A stretch of DNA of 64,000 nucleotides, taken from the NCBI GenBank assembly GCA_029246505.1, contig JAQWNC010000015.1:147662-211661 (forward strand), read 5' to 3'. Origin of the DNA: Arenicellaceae bacterium. GTDB lineage: Bacteria; Pseudomonadota; Gammaproteobacteria; Arenicellales; Arenicellaceae. A program made the translations under genes and the position numbers. Numbering within the stretch: position 1 is the first letter of the stretch; each line of letters starts with the position of its first letter. Positions 1-49,452 of the stretch are shown one piece after another. The notes beneath the pieces were generated by a model, which had not been told where the DNA came from, did no database searches, and saw only the letters and a list, made by a program, of their open reading frames with translations.

Positions 1-597
1 CTTTTCTCCGAGCCAGGCAACGCCAATTATCGCTGGCAACGAAATAACAATCATTGCTGCATCCCCAATCGTAGAACTTTCAGCTGATTGGGCCCCTAAC
101 CACAGCATCACTGCAATTGCTATCAAGTCCTGTAACAGCAACACACTTATAATGACCTCTCCAGTATGCCTGTGATGAAGCACAGTTGTAGGTAGCAATT
201 TTAGGCCAATAATAGTGCTGGAAAACATCGCAGAAAATCCAATAATTAATGTGTCTAACCAACTGAACCCAAACGCTAGCGCAACAACCACACCAAACAA
301 GGAAAAGCTTATCGATGTGATAATCGTTACTATGGTTGTTTTCTTTAACAGAAAAAGCAATTTTTGCGGCGCTAAATTTAGCCCTAACATGAATAACAAA
401 AACATAATGCCAATCTCGGCAATATCAGCTAATAAAGCAGTGTCATCTACCCACGCCAAACCCCACGGCCCTAGCAACACTCCCAAAATTATATAACCGA
501 CAATAAGAGCCTGTCGGGCCCATAAAGCCAGCGTGGCTGTAATGGCACATCCAACAAATATAAGGAATAAAGAATAAATGATGCTATGGGTCTGCAT
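1..597 (-). CDS. Cation:proton antiporter (CPA2, KefB/KefC-like), N-terminal part; gene runs off the left edge of the window
   Basis: Absent from the ORF track because no stop lies in the window. ATG at 597 (complement) opens a frame that stays open to base 1 (199 codons): MQTHSIIYSLFLIFVGCAITATLALWARQALIVGYIILGVLLGPWGLAWVDD... It is a repeated TM-helix pattern with the GYIxxGxLLGPxGL motif typical of Na+/H+ and K+/H+ exchanger family proteins. Confidence 0.7.
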   Translation of the reverse strand, partial: MQTHSIIYSLFLIFVGCAITATLALWARQALIVGYIILGVLLGPWGLAWVDDTALLADIAEIGIMFLLFMLGLNLAPQKLLFLLKKTTIVTIITSISFSLFGVVVALAFGFSWLDTLIIGFSAMFSSTIIGLKLLPTTVLHHRHTGEVIISVLLLQDLIAIAVMLWLGAQSAESSTIGDAAMIVISLPAIIGVAWLGEK

Positions 598-686
598 ATT
601 CCTACCGTAACATTGCGCCACTCCCCGAACCAATCGTTAAAAGAGCATACCTAACGCTAGATAAACCACCAATGAATGTAGCGCTG

Positions 687-1274
687 CTAATTAAAAATAG
701 TTGGTTCCTTTCCCGGTGCCCATTTAATGCTGCAGCCTAAACTGGCAATCTGGTGTTTATCAACCTCTCTTCCTTCAATAACCGCATTGCAGGCTTTTCG
801 TAAATCTTCTCCATTTGAAGAGACCCTGTTTCCAGGCCGTACTCCATCAAACTGACCACGATAGACTAATTTTATATCCTTATCAAAAAGATAAAAATCG
901 GGTGTACAAGCCGCACAACAAGCCCGAGCGACCGTTTGGTTCTTATCATATAAATACGGCATCGCAAACTCGTTTGCCGTCGCAAATCGGGACATATTAT
1001 CAGTGCTATCGGCTGGGTAGGTTTCAGCATCATTAGAATTTATAACCGCAAGCCCAATTCCACTGCTGCAATAGTCTCGAGAAAACTTTCCCAACGCTTC
1101 TGCAATCTTAATAACATAAGGGCAATGATTACAGATAAACGCAAGCATCAACCCTTTGTCGCCCGCTAACTGGTCCGTTGAAATCGTGCGTGCGCCGTAA
1201 TCATGGGTATTATATAACTCAAAATATGGTGCTTTGGTCCCCAGCGCTAACATGGTAGATGATCTTTCAGCCAT
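687..1274 (-). CDS. Thioredoxin-fold thiol-disulfide oxidoreductase (AhpC/TSA-redoxin family, CxxC type)
   Basis: 195-aa ORF with redox motif FICNHCPYV (C-x-x-C) about 50 aa from the N-terminus. No signal peptide. Confidence 0.6.
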   Translation of the reverse strand: MAERSSTMLALGTKAPYFELYNTHDYGARTISTDQLAGDKGLMLAFICNHCPYVIKIAEALGKFSRDYCSSGIGLAVINSNDAETYPADSTDNMSRFATANEFAMPYLYDKNQTVARACCAACTPDFYLFDKDIKLVYRGQFDGVRPGNRVSSNGEDLRKACNAVIEGREVDKHQIASLGCSIKWAPGKEPTIFN

Positions 1275-1286
1275 TTTATGACTAAC

Positions 1287-1859
1287 CTAGACCTTACCCG
1301 CGGCTTTCCAAAAAGCCTCCATAACACGATAGCTTAATCCCCAAAAAATGTGTTGGTCACTATCACTTAAGCGGACTGCCGGCATTAACGAGTCAGATAT
1401 TCTTGGGTGTTGAAAGTCTGCGGAATATGCTGGATCAGTAAATCGACTCAAAGGCACCCATAACGCTTCCGCGACTTCTTCGTTCAATATTAATAACACG
1501 CGCGGTGGCACGTGATAAACAAATGCTGACAACACCACGCCTGGAATGTCAGGCACATTCGCAACCGTGTCATCTAGGCGGCCCACATAGGCGCTTTCAG
1601 ACAATACAAACCCCACTTCTTCAAGTACTTCTCGTTCGGCCGCCGCTCGGGCATCTTTATCGCTACGATCAATTTTCCCTCCTGGAAAAGCCATTTGACC
1701 CGACCAAGCATCTCCGTCTCGCGTTGCGCGCTTGATTACCAGTAGTTCCAGTTCCGTATCTATACCGCGAAAAATTAACGCTACTGATGCACGGCGCGCG
1801 CCGTCTAGTGACCCAATCGTGGCCTGGTACTCCGGAATTGGCTGTAGTACTCGCTCCAA
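1287..1859 (-). CDS. NUDIX hydrolase, CoA pyrophosphatase-like
   Basis: 190-aa ORF. Nudix box FPGGKIDRSDKDARAAAEREVLEEVG (GX5EX7REUXEEXGU), preceded by LLVIKRATRDGDAWSGQMAFPGG as in NudL-type CoA pyrophosphatases. Confidence 0.75.
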   Translation of the reverse strand: MERVLQPIPEYQATIGSLDGARRASVALIFRGIDTELELLVIKRATRDGDAWSGQMAFPGGKIDRSDKDARAAAEREVLEEVGFVLSESAYVGRLDDTVANVPDIPGVVLSAFVYHVPPRVLLILNEEVAEALWVPLSRFTDPAYSADFQHPRISDSLMPAVRLSDSDQHIFWGLSYRVMEAFWKAAGKV

Positions 1860-1885
1860 AGTCTGATCCTAATAATTGGAAATAC

Positions 1886-4651
1886 TTAGGCCTGTCGAAT
1901 TCGCGCGAACATCCACAGCGCTATAAGATAAATCGCAAAGCCTATTACCAAAACGAACTTGAAGCCCATCAGAAACGACAATGTCACCGACAAAAACCCG
2001 CCAAATACGGTGAAAAACCCATTCATCCCCCATGCCCACGGTATACCCCTGGGCTCAATTCGCCCCAATCTACTAACCGCCATTGGTAATGGCATACCCA
2101 TCACAAAACCTAAGGGTAAAAGTAGTAGGGTCGCCACTAAAATTCGTATGCTTATTGAAGAGCCTAAAAACAGATTAAACAAACTACTACTAAAAATCGT
2201 TACCAATGCGCCATAGGCAACGATGCTTAAAAACACCCAGTACCAGCGACCATCCTCGTCTACACGTAGTTTCTTCGTCAATAGACTGCCTGTACCTGCA
2301 GATACTAATAGCGCAAAAATTACCGTTGCATAGGTATGTATTGGATAACCAATCAATTTTTTAAATAATTGAACAAACACCAGCTCTACCATAATAAAGC
2401 CAGCGCCTAGGCAAGAGAAAAACACTAGATAGCTAGCCATTGATGGCCAACGGGCACGGCCATGGTGAGAAAAGAACAATGGTAAAAATATAAAAACTGC
2501 AGAGAAAATTACTGAAACGGTACCCACAATATAAAGACTAAGCCATTCCGCAGACAGCACGTTGCGCAGCTGGTCATTCAAAAACCCTGCTGTACCCCCG
2601 TCCATCATTACACTGTTAGCAACCGAGACAGGTTCAAACTTATTCCGAATCATTGCAAAATAAGGGTTGTTGTCGGTTACCGGTTCCAACTTATATTCTA
2701 GACCTGGAATAGCTTGCGACGGAAAAGGCGTATCGAGTAACTCATTAGGTATTAAGTTACCGGCAGCGTTAAACGGATCGAAAGCCAAAACAAATGGTGC
2801 CGGTGTGCCGCGCATATCGATATACGGTGCACCAGCGCGGTCTAGCCAAAGTACAAACCGATTCTCTTCACCTAGGTTGGTAGAGGAGACTTCTATTTCC
2901 AGCCGCTCCCCACGCGTTGTTTCAATCTGATTGGTCAGAAGCAGTGTATTAGGGCCATTGTCGGTAACATTCTTCCCGTCAAGAGTGAAAGACTCCAGCA
3001 AATTACCACCACGGCTAAGTTTGACCAAAACATCATCCTGTAGGCTAACCTGGCCGTATGTCCCCAACCAAAACGTAAAACTATCCAGACGATCCTGGTT
3101 TACCACAAATTCGCCGTGATATGGCGTGCGCGATGCAATCGGGTCAGAAGGAATGTTTTCACCTGGTATACCGCCAGACACAAACGTGGTATCTCGAATC
3201 ATGTACTGTCGGGCCGCTTCAACTTCTCCCGGAAGCCAAGGTTGCATTTTAATTAGTGTAGTCGGTAAGGTGTCAGTTCGCCAACGTTCCAACACAACCA
3301 CATGACGAGAAAATTCTTCACGGCCCATTTGACGCCATGCCTCAGCTGCCGTAGTAAGCATCCGCGGATAAACGTGATGATTAATTTGCATAATTCCATC
3401 GTCAGCTAAATGCGTAAAGTACTCCTTATAAGCTTCGACGGTTTGTAAATATGCCGCGGTTACTGCCCCAGAGCCATCGGCCATACTTGAGCTGGTGTGG
3501 TTACTAAACATTTGTATGACGTCATACTTTTTGTCGCTACCACGCAAAAAAGTTCTTCCTTCGCCAACTCGATAGTTAACCGACGGGTGACTAAAAATTC
3601 CACCGCCGTATTCGGAATATAGGGTGCTCGCAGCATCGACCATCTCGCCAACCAGCTCAATAGCATCTACATGCTTTGCCTTAAATACTACTGCAGCCTT
3701 GGTTTCTCCCCCCGCTGCTGCCCCTATAATCAGCACGTCCGGCTCCGTGCCACGACGTAAATAGTGCACCAAAGAGTTCATACCAAAATAGAAGATGTCC
3801 GGGTTGTTCGCCATTTCCTGATCAAACGCGGAGTAGTCGCCATCAAATTCAATTAACCAGGAACCCTGCTGTCCACCATCCAAAGCAAAATTAAGTGCCG
3901 TGGGATTAGCTCTAAACACTTCAACTTTGGATACTGGATCCCATCGAACAAAATCCCTTAGCCCCTGCTCGGTCCAGTCATCTACATTTCTTTTATTGGC
4001 ATGACCCCGATACTCGATATATTCTTCTCGCGCAGAGGGATAAACGATTAACCCAAACGCAACAACCAACATAAGGGCCATTGCTAATACTCGCCGACTA
4101 AAGATAGCTGCAGCAATCAGTGTTATACCAGCCACCACAAACTGAATTCCGCCAGGTCCGTACGGGGTCAGCAACGGCACCACAATCAGGCACCCCAAGC
4201 CCGCACCAATCAAATCAAAAAAGTAAAGCGAGTGAACCTGTTCACTGTAGTGGGTCAGAATCAACGAAAGTAGAATCCCTGCGATAAAAAATGGTAATAC
4301 CAGAACAAGATACATCCCCACCCAAGCTAGAACCTGCCGTAGTAATGTGCCCCCACCATTTAAATCAAAAGGTAACCAATCAATTGTCGGCTTCAAAACT
4401 AAAGTAGTGATGCAAAATGCCATAAGTAATTTCGGCATAAGTGCCAAAACTTTTTCTTCGCTATCAACCGGGAATAGATACAAGTAAATGCCACCCAAAC
4501 CGAGAGCAAACACAGCTGCGGTTATTACTGCATAACCCATATTAGGGGTAAGAATTACGTCAAATACTCGCACTAGGCTCAGCTCTAAAACCAACGTAGC
4601 TAGAGCTATAAGGAAAATACCGATTCTAAGTCGGGTAATGGAAACAAGCAT
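1886..4651 (-). CDS. Large polytopic membrane protein with a central spermidine-synthase-like (Rossmann methyltransferase-fold) domain; function unknown
   Basis: 921-aa ORF. About 7 N-terminal and about 7 C-terminal hydrophobic helices flank a soluble core containing VLIIGAAAGGETKAAVVFKAKHVDAIELVGEMVDAA...YDVIQMFSNHTSS. This resembles the aminopropyltransferase fold with altered motifs. Confidence 0.55.
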   Translation of the reverse strand: MLVSITRLRIGIFLIALATLVLELSLVRVFDVILTPNMGYAVITAAVFALGLGGIYLYLFPVDSEEKVLALMPKLLMAFCITTLVLKPTIDWLPFDLNGGGTLLRQVLAWVGMYLVLVLPFFIAGILLSLILTHYSEQVHSLYFFDLIGAGLGCLIVVPLLTPYGPGGIQFVVAGITLIAAAIFSRRVLAMALMLVVAFGLIVYPSAREEYIEYRGHANKRNVDDWTEQGLRDFVRWDPVSKVEVFRANPTALNFALDGGQQGSWLIEFDGDYSAFDQEMANNPDIFYFGMNSLVHYLRRGTEPDVLIIGAAAGGETKAAVVFKAKHVDAIELVGEMVDAASTLYSEYGGGIFSHPSVNYRVGEGRTFLRGSDKKYDVIQMFSNHTSSSMADGSGAVTAAYLQTVEAYKEYFTHLADDGIMQINHHVYPRMLTTAAEAWRQMGREEFSRHVVVLERWRTDTLPTTLIKMQPWLPGEVEAARQYMIRDTTFVSGGIPGENIPSDPIASRTPYHGEFVVNQDRLDSFTFWLGTYGQVSLQDDVLVKLSRGGNLLESFTLDGKNVTDNGPNTLLLTNQIETTRGERLEIEVSSTNLGEENRFVLWLDRAGAPYIDMRGTPAPFVLAFDPFNAAGNLIPNELLDTPFPSQAIPGLEYKLEPVTDNNPYFAMIRNKFEPVSVANSVMMDGGTAGFLNDQLRNVLSAEWLSLYIVGTVSVIFSAVFIFLPLFFSHHGRARWPSMASYLVFFSCLGAGFIMVELVFVQLFKKLIGYPIHTYATVIFALLVSAGTGSLLTKKLRVDEDGRWYWVFLSIVAYGALVTIFSSSLFNLFLGSSISIRILVATLLLLPLGFVMGMPLPMAVSRLGRIEPRGIPWAWGMNGFFTVFGGFLSVTLSFLMGFKFVLVIGFAIYLIALWMFARIRQA

Positions 4652-15685: not shown

Positions 15686-15874
15686 GCCTTTTATGCTCAA
15701 CTCCGGTTGAAACGTAAAGAAGAGGTTTGCTGAAGAAAAAGTTATTCTAACGGTAGGAAATATTAAAGCCGTCGCCTCGGTTAATATAAAAACCGTGAAG
15801 CATATTTTACATATTATTCTCTGATACTATCCATCTGTGATTTAACTTTCCTAATGTCCTTTGAAGGAGCCAAA

Positions 15875-16417
15875 ATGCATCACAAATTATGCCAACGTAT
15901 TTCGCTAATGCTCGGAGCGATTACTGCAACAATAGTGTTATTTACTCAATCCGCAATGGGGCTAGAGGTTGGCGCAACCGCAGCAGATTTCTCACTACAA
16001 GCATCAGATGGAAATACCTACACACTGTCTCAATTCATTGGCGAGAAACCAGTCGTCATTGCTTTTTTCCCCAAGGCCTTTACCGGTGGATGAACTATCC
16101 AATGTAAAGCACTGCGTGACAGTGCTCAAGAAATACAGGGTTTTGATGTTGCTTATTTTATGGCAAGTGTAGACACACTGGAGACTAACACAGCTTTTGC
16201 GTTAGAACATCAAGCGGGGTTTCCGATTCTGGCAGACCCCAGCAAAGAGATGTCGGCTGCTTATGGTGTGATGAATGCAATGGGTGTAGATAACCGCTGG
16301 ACCTATTATATTGATGCAACAGGCACCATAGTCAAAATCGATAAAGAAATAAGCCCGGCTGCTGCAGGAGAAGTATTAACACAAACCATGAAAGAGTTAG
16401 GGTTTCCTATAAAGTAA
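15875..16417 (+). CDS. Secreted peroxiredoxin (AhpC/TSA, BCP/PrxQ-like) with in-frame TGA at 16091-16093 read as selenocysteine (candidate selenoprotein)
   Basis: Track ORFs 15854..16093 and 16160..16417 share a frame (difference 306). Read-through gives FFPKAFTGG-[TGA][27 protein letters not shown], against the paralog [42 protein letters not shown] lies 7 nt before ATG 15875. The signal peptide ends AMG|LEVG. A hairpin lies just 3' of the TGA. Confidence 0.75.
16108..16126 (+). other. Candidate bacterial SECIS hairpin
   Basis: AGCACTG (16108-16114), loop CGTGA, CAGTGCT (16120-16126). This is a perfect 7-bp stem starting 14 nt after the TGA, with G at the second loop position. No equivalent stem follows the TGC codon of the Cys paralog. 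Confidence 0.6.
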
Positions 16418-16425
16418 ATCTCCCA

Positions 16426-16448
16426 GGGGGCGAATGTTCTCTGCCCCC
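16426..16448 (+). terminator. Possible intrinsic terminator after the peroxiredoxin gene
   Basis: GGGGGC (16426-16431), an 11-nt loop, then GCCCCC (16443-16448), 9 nt after the stop codon. The downstream T-tract is weak (aaactttcgcttt). Confidence 0.4.
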
Positions 16449-16680
16449 GGAAACTTTCGCTTTGCTTGCCGAAGCTGTATCCGTTTATCTCATTGGACGA
16501 GATCTACACGCAGCAATCTCTGGCAGAGTTTTTTACAATAATTCCGGGTTGGTTTGCAAAAAGAAAATCCATAAATTTGCATAGGAACCTCATGATGAAC
16601 CTGCCATAGTTGTGAGTATGCGCGTTCTAAGTGTAAATCGTAACTTTAGTCGAAATACAGTGCCTGTAATTGGAGTGCTA

Positions 16681-44384: not shown

Positions 44385-44909
44385 CTAATTTGTGGCAATC
44401 GTTACACCAAGCATGCCCAGCATGGTTGAAATGTCCTCAGCAGATGTTGCTGGATTAATGTTGGAATCTATTGCCGTAATTAATCCGTCCACACCGATAT
44501 ATATGGTGTGACGTGAGGCCACGCCTCGGGTATTTAGTACGTCGTAAGCTGACGCTACAACTTTGTTTGGATCACTGAGCAGCGGGAAGTCGGCTTTATT
44601 CTCTTCCGCAAATCCCGTATTTTCCTCTATGGGGTCAACGCTTGCCATAAAGTATGCAGCATCAAACTTTCGGATTAAATGGCCTTTTTCTGCCAAAGAC
44701 TTACATTCAATTGTGCACCCTTGAGTATAAGCTTTAGGGAACCACGCAATAACAACGGCTTTTTGTCCTTTAAAAGTGCTAAGTGTATAAGTCTTTCCGT
44801 CCGACGCCTGCAAAGTAAAATCAGGCGCTATATCACCTACCTCTAATCCAAGTGCGGACGCTGGAAGGATGATAGTGATTACGGCCAGCGCTAGAAATCG
44901 ATTCAACAT
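44385..44909 (-). CDS. Secreted peroxiredoxin (AhpC/TSA, BCP/PrxQ-like), Cys form
   Basis: 174 aa. Signal peptide ending ALG|LEVG. Peroxidatic motif [13 protein letters not shown] (Cys codon at 44715-44717). Collinear with the TGA-containing copy at 15875..16417. Confidence 0.85.
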
Positions 44910-48741: not shown

Positions 48742-49452
48742 CTAGATAGGAATGAAAACTGCGGTCGCGAGTTTTAACAAATTGGATGGAATCCGCTGAT
48801 TGGAATTACCACCCAAAATATCGACCACTAAGTCCTGGTAGTCAATGATTCGGTTAATTAGGCGGTCATAGCTAATATTAATTTCGCCAGGGCCGTAAGA
48901 ATTTGAAAGCAGCATAAGTCCGCTGTTTGTTAAGCGCTTATTATTTAGTCGCCAATTTGCAATTTCTATATTTCGGGCGGAAGCATAAATTTTTTGCGGA
49001 CTAATATGGTCGACAACAAAAAACTCTTTTTTGTTGTCGTACGACTCCATGATCATGCTTCCCAAACCCACGGTAAAAGCTAAAACACGATCCCCTGTAA
49101 AGTTTTCGTTGAATGCAAGTTCTAGCGCAGAAATTGATGCTGTGCCTCCAAGCTCATTGTGTATCCAATGTGGGCCATTATCACTAAATATCTGATTCAT
49201 TCGTGAAGTAAGGGTTACCGAGGGAGACGCTTTCTGTAATTCTCTTGGGTTCTTTCGATAAAGTTTAAGCATTAACGCTTTTACTGATTCCATCTGACTG
49301 GCTACGACTAGTTCATATGTTTTTCCGGCCTCAGATTTGGCCAGATTTTTGATCTCAAAATCCTTTAAGTCGATAGATGCGCATGAGTTCAATAGCAATG
49401 GCGTTAATAAAATTAACAGTTTATTACTAAAGGAGGAGTAGTTTTTCATCAA
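48742..49452 (-). CDS. Hypothetical lipoprotein
   Basis: 236 aa. Lipobox LLNSC at residues about 20-24. It lies 12 nt downstream of, and co-oriented with, the M13 peptidase gene. No family recognised. Confidence 0.55.
   Translation of the reverse strand: MMKNYSSFSNKLLILLTPLLLNSCASIDLKDFEIKNLAKSEAGKTYELVVASQMESVKALMLKLYRKNPRELQKASPSVTLTSRMNQIFSDNGPHWIHNELGGTASISALELAFNENFTGDRVLAFTVGLGSMIMESYDNKKEFFVVDHISPQKIYASARNIEIANWRLNNKRLTNSGLMLLSNSYGPGEINISYDRLINRIIDYQDLVVDILGGNSNQRIPSNLLKLATAVFIPI

Follow-up and report, generated by a model that had tools for sequence, protein, structure and literature searches.

The 64-kb stretch of Arenicellaceae DNA considered here, referred to throughout as the window, carries at 15875..16417 of its forward strand what is very probably an intact gene for an exported peroxiredoxin, in which an in-frame UGA codon is decoded as the peroxidatic selenocysteine (Sec). 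The open reading frame (ORF) track divides this gene into two pieces, 15854..16093 and 16160..16417, which lie in one frame with the TGA at 16091-16093 between them. A first, sequence-only reading of the window had joined the two pieces on account of their shared frame, and the match to the Pfam domain AhpC-TSA (PF00578) does run through the TGA, covering residues 32-154 (E = 7e-29; 100.6 bits against a cut-off of 26). Read-through translation from the ATG at 15875 yields 180 codons (...VVIAFFPKAFTGG-[UGA]-TIQCKALRDS...), and 15875 rather than 15854 is taken as the start because an AGGAG sequence sits 5 nucleotides (nt) upstream of it. The same reading had placed the UGA on the peroxidatic cysteine, which is borne out by the alignment: the TGA is matched by Cys in the PxxxTxxC/U motif, including that of a paralogue encoded at 44385..44909(-) of the window.

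The remainder of the active site is that of a peroxiredoxin. P66, T70, U73 (Sec or Cys) and R141 are invariant in the family alignment, and an AlphaFold (AF2) model of a 94%-identical Cys-form (pLDDT 91) superimposes on the structures of AhpE and BCP with TM scores of 0.85-0.88. A U-x3-C redox pair had been proposed as well; Cys77, four residues after the Sec, is invariant in Sec-forms and Cys-forms alike. In the AF2 model it belongs to the first turn of helix alpha2, and it is a candidate for the resolving residue in an atypical 2-Cys-like mechanism with a U73-C77 selenenylsulfide.

The catalytic codon in related genes

The distribution of the UGA codon was followed through a protein search, which recovered 2,867 relatives of the window peroxiredoxin, a genome scan with one genome per species (80 loci, mostly Pseudohongiellaceae/OM182 metagenome-assembled genomes, MAGs) and a metagenome scan (80 further loci). 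The catalytic codon is TGA in 63 of the 80 species-representative loci and TGC or TGT in the other 17, and it is TGA in 80 of 80 metagenome loci, proportions that are skewed towards the kin of a Sec-form query and do not represent population frequencies. Taken together, TGA occupies the site in 143 loci and the window, TGC or TGT in 21 (the 17 genomes and four contigs, L001-L004), and no third codon type is encountered. Counted over independent genomes and metagenomes, 146 related sequences have TGA at exactly this codon, and TGA-forms extend down to about 55-60% identity. The sequence-only reading had proposed examining whether this column alternates solely with Cys codons (TGC/TGT), and among the homologues it does.

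Database proteins give a different impression of the site. The best protein match (P0001, 94% identical) has Cys at the catalytic position, and the next six (P0002-P0007, 65-73% identical) are printed with a 'W'. The DNA behind these six (L005-L009, with gene calls from JGI and ENA) reads TGA at the 'W' site, and the printed residue is therefore an artefact of gene callers switching to genetic code 4. These entries are what speaks for an alternative genetic code, in which UGA would stand for Trp or Gly (code 4 or 25), an explanation that has next to no chance of being correct: TGA terminates 5 of the 38 long ORFs in the window, so that a UGA-sense code is excluded, a peroxidatic Trp would make a dead enzyme, and the column otherwise holds Cys alone. 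The peroxiredoxin also contains the sole credible in-frame TGA of the 64 kb, as a six-frame scan of long TAA/TAG-delimited frames with an internal TGA turned up no other credible TGA-interrupted gene in the window.

The region beyond the UGA is under constraint. Not one of 66 distinct Sec-form genes has acquired an extra stop, and the mean pairwise ratio of non-synonymous to synonymous differences (pN/pS) in Sec-forms is 0.205 downstream of the UGA and 0.163 upstream of it, compared with 0.245 downstream in Cys-forms. Since the downstream ratio resembles the upstream one and no stop has been added, the region past the UGA is translated, and the earlier argument that the gene has not decayed is upheld by this persistent purifying selection.

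The closest relatives bear on the TGA of the window itself. L090, an independent metagenome contig that is 94% identical, likewise has TGA, keeps its signal peptide intact and carries the hairpin described below in the variant of the window; a TGA common to the window and L090 is therefore neither a private mutation nor a sequencing error. L001-L004 are the closest syntenic relatives, sharing with the window the gene order ubiE-SCP2-ubiB-prx-M1 peptidase-DUF6702-Rrf2-suf, and have TGC at the Sec codon. Polarising the substitutions among the window, L090 and L001 assigns 6 synonymous and 5 non-synonymous private changes to the window lineage and 1 synonymous and 6 non-synonymous to the L001 lineage, the latter including TGA>TGC and a CAA>TAA nonsense change in the signal peptide. 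Within this sub-clade, then, TGA came first and Cys is the derived state. Relaxed constraint in the window lineage was considered and rejected, its 6 synonymous against 5 non-synonymous private changes indicating purifying selection. In L001 (positions 3950-4500), and also in L002-L004, the CAA>TAA change falls at signal-peptide codon 25, so that the gene is called from Met28 and without a signal peptide; in this lineage the conversion of Sec to Cys may go together with relocalisation or with the onset of decay.

These comparisons bear on two simpler explanations of the in-frame stop. The first is that a nonsense mutation, TGC to TGA, has inactivated a Cys-peroxiredoxin in this one genome, and a single A/C difference is indeed all that separates the window from L001 at the codon. 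Such a pseudogene is nevertheless very unlikely, as TGA is the majority state in the 146 sequences, down to about 55-60% identity, the sister sequence L090 shares it, so that TGC is derived by parsimony, constraint downstream of the codon equals that upstream, and the SECIS-type hairpin is under Sec-specific selection. The second is an error of sequencing or assembly; consensus errors do occur in MAGs, but L090, a separate metagenome assembly from the same population, has the same base, as do at least 140 further assemblies, which leaves this explanation with hardly any probability.

Among the loci recovered, three MAGs titled 'Klebsiella pneumoniae' (L074), 'Rhodoferax sp. OV413' (L077) and 'Glaciecola sp.' (L057) hold peroxiredoxin genes of the Pseudohongiella type. 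The proteins of L074 and L077 are identical to one another across the aligned region, and the three titles suggest mislabelled or contaminated bins.

The SECIS-type hairpin and the Sec-decoding machinery

A hairpin of the kind expected for a bacterial Sec insertion sequence (bSECIS) follows the UGA. The structure, AGCACUG-CGUGA-CAGUGCU, starts 14 nt past the codon, which is separated from the loop by 21 nt, and has a predicted energy of -8.9 kcal/mol. Criteria for bSECIS elements as quoted in PMC13188914 are a loop of 3-9 nt, an upper stem of 4-16 bp, a distance of 16-37 nt from the UGA to the loop, a G in the first two loop positions and a minimum free energy of -7.5 kcal/mol or lower. The window hairpin lies within every one of these limits: its loop is 5 nt long, with G in second place and U after it, the stem has 7 bp, the distance is 21 nt and the energy -8.9 kcal/mol; the variant in the related locus L086 is slightly weaker (-6.7 kcal/mol).

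The core CUG-CGUGA-CAG is invariant in 146 of 146 Sec-form sequences, and stem pairing is held in 92.4% of alignment cells. Pair 21-33 occurs as GU (59), AU (4) or GC (3) and is never broken, and pair 19-35 is GC in 61 sequences and UG in one, the latter through a double change from G-C to U-G in L067; L059, which lies outside the pairing alignment, has the same U-G state. Double changes are seen at 2 of the hairpin pairs. The strong evidence here is selective: the hairpin is under a synonymous constraint specific to Sec-forms. Third-position entropy over codons +6 to +10 is 0-0.27 bits in 66 Sec-forms versus 0.65-1.95 in 18 Cys-forms, and the synonymous component (pS) over codons +1 to +13 is 0.27 in Sec-forms versus 0.85 in Cys-forms, values elsewhere in the gene being about 0.7-0.8 in both groups. 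In the Cys lineages L001 and L078, which are recently converted, the hairpin core is kept as a relic; in older Cys clades it has been lost or eroded.

Two relatives place Sec-form genes beside genes for the decoding machinery. In L086, selA and selB (996..2888; Pfam SelA at E = 1e-113, and SelB domains) end 59 nt before the Sec-peroxiredoxin gene (2947..3465) on the same strand, and the stretch from 61 to 3465 has an operon-like selA-selB-prx arrangement; the SelB of this locus is named 'Ca. Azotimanducaceae' in one source. The L087 locus (6-2176) has the 3' end of selB upstream of, and on one strand with, its Sec-peroxiredoxin gene; a single SDR gene separates the two. Both loci were matched by tblastn with the E. 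coli SelA, SelB and SelD proteins. The neighbourhoods of L086 and L087 tie the Sec-peroxiredoxin family physically to the decoding machinery, which is no proof for the organism of the window.

Several observations weigh against Sec decoding in the window. The Cys residue of the closest syntenic relatives, L001-L004, shows that the Sec state is evolutionarily labile in the clade. Covariation in the hairpin is thin, with 3 of its 7 pairs never varying and an RNAalifold covariation term of only -0.09, strict covariation being weak because the hairpin is so conserved; folding z-scores are unremarkable (-1.7 for the window, -0.3 for L013), and Rfam scans of the window, of the UGA region at E <= 10 and of seven related loci matched no SECIS or tRNA-Sec family. 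No selA, selB or selD was detected in the 64-kb window by tblastn with the E. coli proteins, none of the 40 large annotated ORFs of the window is a sel gene by Pfam, and ARAGORN found no tRNA, and hence no tRNA-Sec, in the 64 kb. Nor was a tRNA-Sec found beside selAB in L086 or L087 (ARAGORN, Rfam). The source Arenicellaceae organism would be Sec-competent if its sequence features are taken at face value, and the main residual doubt is that the sel genes were not seen in the window. In the same searches ARAGORN called no tRNA in seven related loci; these served to re-check an earlier count of 0 tRNAs across 886 kb of sequence, which was regarded as doubtful. The one Rfam match, MAT2A_A at E = 1.2, was dismissed as noise.

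The absence of sel genes and tRNA-Sec from the window would also fit a stranded selenoprotein gene, that is, one in an organism where Sec decoding has been lost or was never present, and where the UGA gives a 72-residue fragment or a low level of near-cognate read-through (Trp or Cys). It is in keeping with this that the nearest syntenic relatives have moved to Cys, as lineages abandoning Sec do. A stranded gene should however gain stops or frameshifts or turn to Cys, and none of this is seen: the window and L090 both retain the TGA together with an intact SECIS, and the 6 synonymous versus 5 non-synonymous private changes of the window lineage speak for purifying selection. This explanation is therefore judged improbable, if less so than the pseudogene or the sequence error, and decoding of the UGA as Sec remains the preferred reading.

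Export, proposed mechanism and known peroxiredoxins

The features of the gene are listed in Table 1.

Table 1. Features of the selenoperoxiredoxin gene and its paralogue in the window
Feature	Position	Strand	Remarks
Selenoperoxiredoxin coding sequence, complete (putative Sec)	15875..16417	+	180 codons + TAA; Sec = codon 73
Shine-Dalgarno sequence AGGAG	15865..15869	+	5 nt 5' of ATG 15875; kept in L090 and L001
In-frame UGA = U73, putative peroxidatic selenocysteine	16091..16093	+	only TGA or Cys codons in the column
Active-site motif P66-K-A-F-T70-G-G-U73 (PxxxTxxU)	16070..16093	+	P66, T70 and G72 invariant in the family alignment
Cys77 (TGT), candidate resolving Cys, UxxxC	16103..16105	+	invariant in Sec-forms and Cys-forms
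Conserved catalytic Arg R141 (CGC)	16295..16297	+	invariant in the family alignment; aligns with the NR motif of M. tuberculosis AhpE
Predicted signal peptide, residues 1-29, MHHKLCQRISLMLGAITATIVLFTQSAMG	15875..15961	+	predicted cleavage before L30-E-V-G; from sequence features
Bacterial SECIS-type hairpin	16108..16126	+	7-bp stem AGCACUG/CAGUGCU, loop CGUGA at 16115-16119
Suppressed synonymous change, codons +1 to +13, overlapping the SECIS	16094..16132	+	entropy, pS
Cys-containing paralogue, predicted exported	44385..44909	-	50% identical to the Sec-form; Cys at the aligned column

The cleavable signal peptide, and with it the export, that the sequence-only reading had predicted gains from the comparison. 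Every one of the 143 Sec-forms analysed has a presequence, 29 residues or longer and with a hydrophobic core, in which position -3 is A or V in 140 of them and position -1 is A or G in all, directly before a conserved LEVG. The presequence fits an AXA-type substrate of signal peptidase I, and the mature protein would accordingly be periplasmic.

From this conserved anatomy the following course can be proposed. During translation the complex of SelB, GTP and Sec-tRNA(Sec) would bind the hairpin, and Sec would be delivered to the UGA in place of release factor 2, resulting in selenium incorporation at the active site. The 180-residue precursor would then be exported through the Sec translocon and cut by signal peptidase I after A-M-G29 to release a periplasmic enzyme of about 151 residues. 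By analogy with peroxiredoxin chemistry, the U73 selenolate, positioned by P66, T70 and R141, would reduce H2O2 or organic hydroperoxides and be converted to a selenenic acid, and this is probably resolved by the invariant Cys77, at a distance of one helical turn, into an intramolecular selenenylsulfide. The selenenylsulfide would in turn be reduced by a thioredoxin-like protein of the periplasm that receives electrons from a membrane transporter of the DsbD/CcdA/ScsB type, as has been shown for the Cys enzyme PprX of Caulobacter. Synteny points to no conserved redox partner: neither in the window nor in the main Pseudohongiellaceae/OM182 clade is the gene accompanied by one for a reductant, and no ScsB, DsbD, CcdA or TlpA gene adjoins it in either.

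Sec-containing peroxiredoxins with a TxxU motif are an established concept and are not new here. The Prx family (pfam00578, TxxU) figures among the listed selenoprotein families and has 253 sequences in 34 Global Ocean Sampling (GOS) samples (Zhang & Gladyshev, PMC2398784). Marine-metagenome Prx selenoproteins, from the Sargasso Sea and GOS, share with the window protein the Pfam domain, the Sec position in PxxxTxxU and the marine bacterial setting, and were recognised from the same type of evidence, namely Sec/Cys pairs and bSECIS elements (PMC2398784). That family is broadly defined, and the text of PMC2398784 mentions neither a signal peptide nor the periplasm, whereas here a subfamily is delimited (AhpE/BCP-like, UxxxC, predicted to be exported) and tied to named lineages.

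A bacterial peroxiredoxin with peroxidatic Sec, as proposed here, is also represented by PrxU of Eubacterium acidaminophilum, which has been characterised biochemically (Sohling 2001, cited in PMC13188914) and is the only bacterial Sec-peroxiredoxin among the experimentally verified selenoproteins listed in PMC13188914. The window protein scores 47.6 bits against the PrxU equivalog model NF040737, whose cut-off is 270, and is therefore not a PrxU orthologue. The PrxU model spans 233 positions and its organism is a strict anaerobe, whereas the window protein, of marine gammaproteobacterial origin, has a predicted signal peptide and a mature length of about 151 residues. The sequence-only reading had stated that Sec-containing Prx-like proteins were predicted from marine metagenomes, which the 253 GOS sequences confirm, and that they were essentially uncharacterised, which overstates the case at the level of the family given the work on PrxU; for the exported AhpE/BCP-like subfamily no characterisation was found.

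The nearest solved structure is that of M. tuberculosis AhpE (Rv2238c; PDB 1XXU and 1XVW; E = 3e-18, about 34% identity, TM 0.87); BCP proteins come next in the sequence comparison. AhpE shares the FFP-x-AFTG-C context and the catalytic Arg but has Leu where the window protein has Cys77. The title of its PDB entry describes a 1-Cys peroxiredoxin, and its chain begins where the mature window protein begins, without a presequence. The BCP/PrxQ proteins supply the best NCBIfam match (E. coli BCP, NF006960) and a top structural match (Sulfolobus Bcp1, PDB 3DRN), and follow a similar atypical 2-Cys scheme, in which the resolving Cys shares the helix of the peroxidatic one. The window protein differs from BCP in its predicted export, its proposed Sec and its U-x3-C spacing; the spacing in E. 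coli BCP is C-x4-C. Its score against the E. coli-type BCP equivalog NF006960 is 72 bits, below the cut-off of 140, and no NCBIfam equivalog cut-off is reached by the protein (BCP 72/140, PrxU 47.6/270). An exported precedent of the BCP/PrxQ type is PprX of Caulobacter crescentus, a periplasmic protein with a cleavable signal sequence that is reduced via TlpA and ScsB (Cho et al. 2012, PMC3322552). It offers a working model for the re-reduction of an exported peroxiredoxin; PprX uses Cys, and its resolving Cys is placed differently (PMC3322552).

By its sequence the window protein appears to belong to an AhpE/BCP-like, exported UxxxC subfamily distinct from PrxU. What goes beyond the textbook case is this exported AhpE/BCP-like UxxxC architecture, its breadth over marine gammaproteobacterial families and its adjacency to selAB. 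A wider proposal is put forward tentatively, the balance leaning slightly against it: that these genes make up a distinct, not yet delineated subfamily of AhpE/BCP-like U-x3-C selenoperoxiredoxins that reach the periplasm through the Sec translocon and have no relation to the formate dehydrogenases and hydrogenases exported by Tat, that the subfamily occurs widely among the abundant aerobic Gammaproteobacteria of the sea (Pseudohongiellaceae/OM182, Azotimanducaceae, Arenicellaceae), and that in some lineages the gene, apparently co-transcribed with selAB, may be a principal reason to keep the Sec machinery.

Genomic setting and implications

The context of the peroxiredoxin gene in the window, with ubiE-ubiJ-ubiB on one side and M1 peptidase-DUF6702-iscR-suf on the other, is confined to its own tight clade. 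The Sec-peroxiredoxin gene of the main Pseudohongiellaceae/OM182 clade (L013, L017, L032) lies between genes for TPR and DUF3014 proteins, with a tandem-rhodanese gene following in L017, a setting wholly unlike the ubiB/M1-peptidase context of the window. A GC-rich hairpin (16423..16450, CC-A-GGGGGC ... GCCCCC-GG with an 11-nt loop) begins 6 nt past the stop codon, and its conservation extends to L001 and L090. A clear U-tract is lacking and the terminator scan did not call the hairpin, which may be a terminator or an mRNA-stability element. The promoter and terminator scan of the window was uninformative, its counts not exceeding those of shuffled sequences.

The window holds three genes of the AhpC/TSA family: the Sec-form, the Cys paralogue with its predicted export, and a third, encoding a 195-residue Redoxin protein at 687..1274(-) and adjoining a NUDIX gene. 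From 34587 to 62320 the window constitutes the chromosomal origin region, with gyrB, dnaN, dnaA, yidC, mnmE, mnmG, rsmG and the atp operon; GC content falls to 36% at 36-40 kb, and the GC skew changes sign near 40 kb. Two further ORFs are of obscure affiliation, one of 921 residues (1886..4651(-)) with only a weak match to a spermine-synthase domain and one of 236 residues (48742..49452(-)) without a Pfam match.

Standard annotation either cuts a gene of this kind in two or labels it a pseudogene, and in the output of some pipelines the catalytic residue appears as Trp. The consequence is the mis-annotation of an entire clade of active-site selenoenzymes from common marine heterotrophs. The repeated Sec-to-Cys conversions, which leave SECIS relics and one of which coincides with the loss of the signal peptide, provide a natural series for the study of Sec/Cys exchange. 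An exported Sec-peroxiredoxin, if true, would expose a highly reactive selenol to the oxidising conditions of the periplasm, and the question it raises is which reductant recycles the selenenylsulfide. In ecological terms, it would link selenium demand to peroxide defence in bacteria of the surface ocean.

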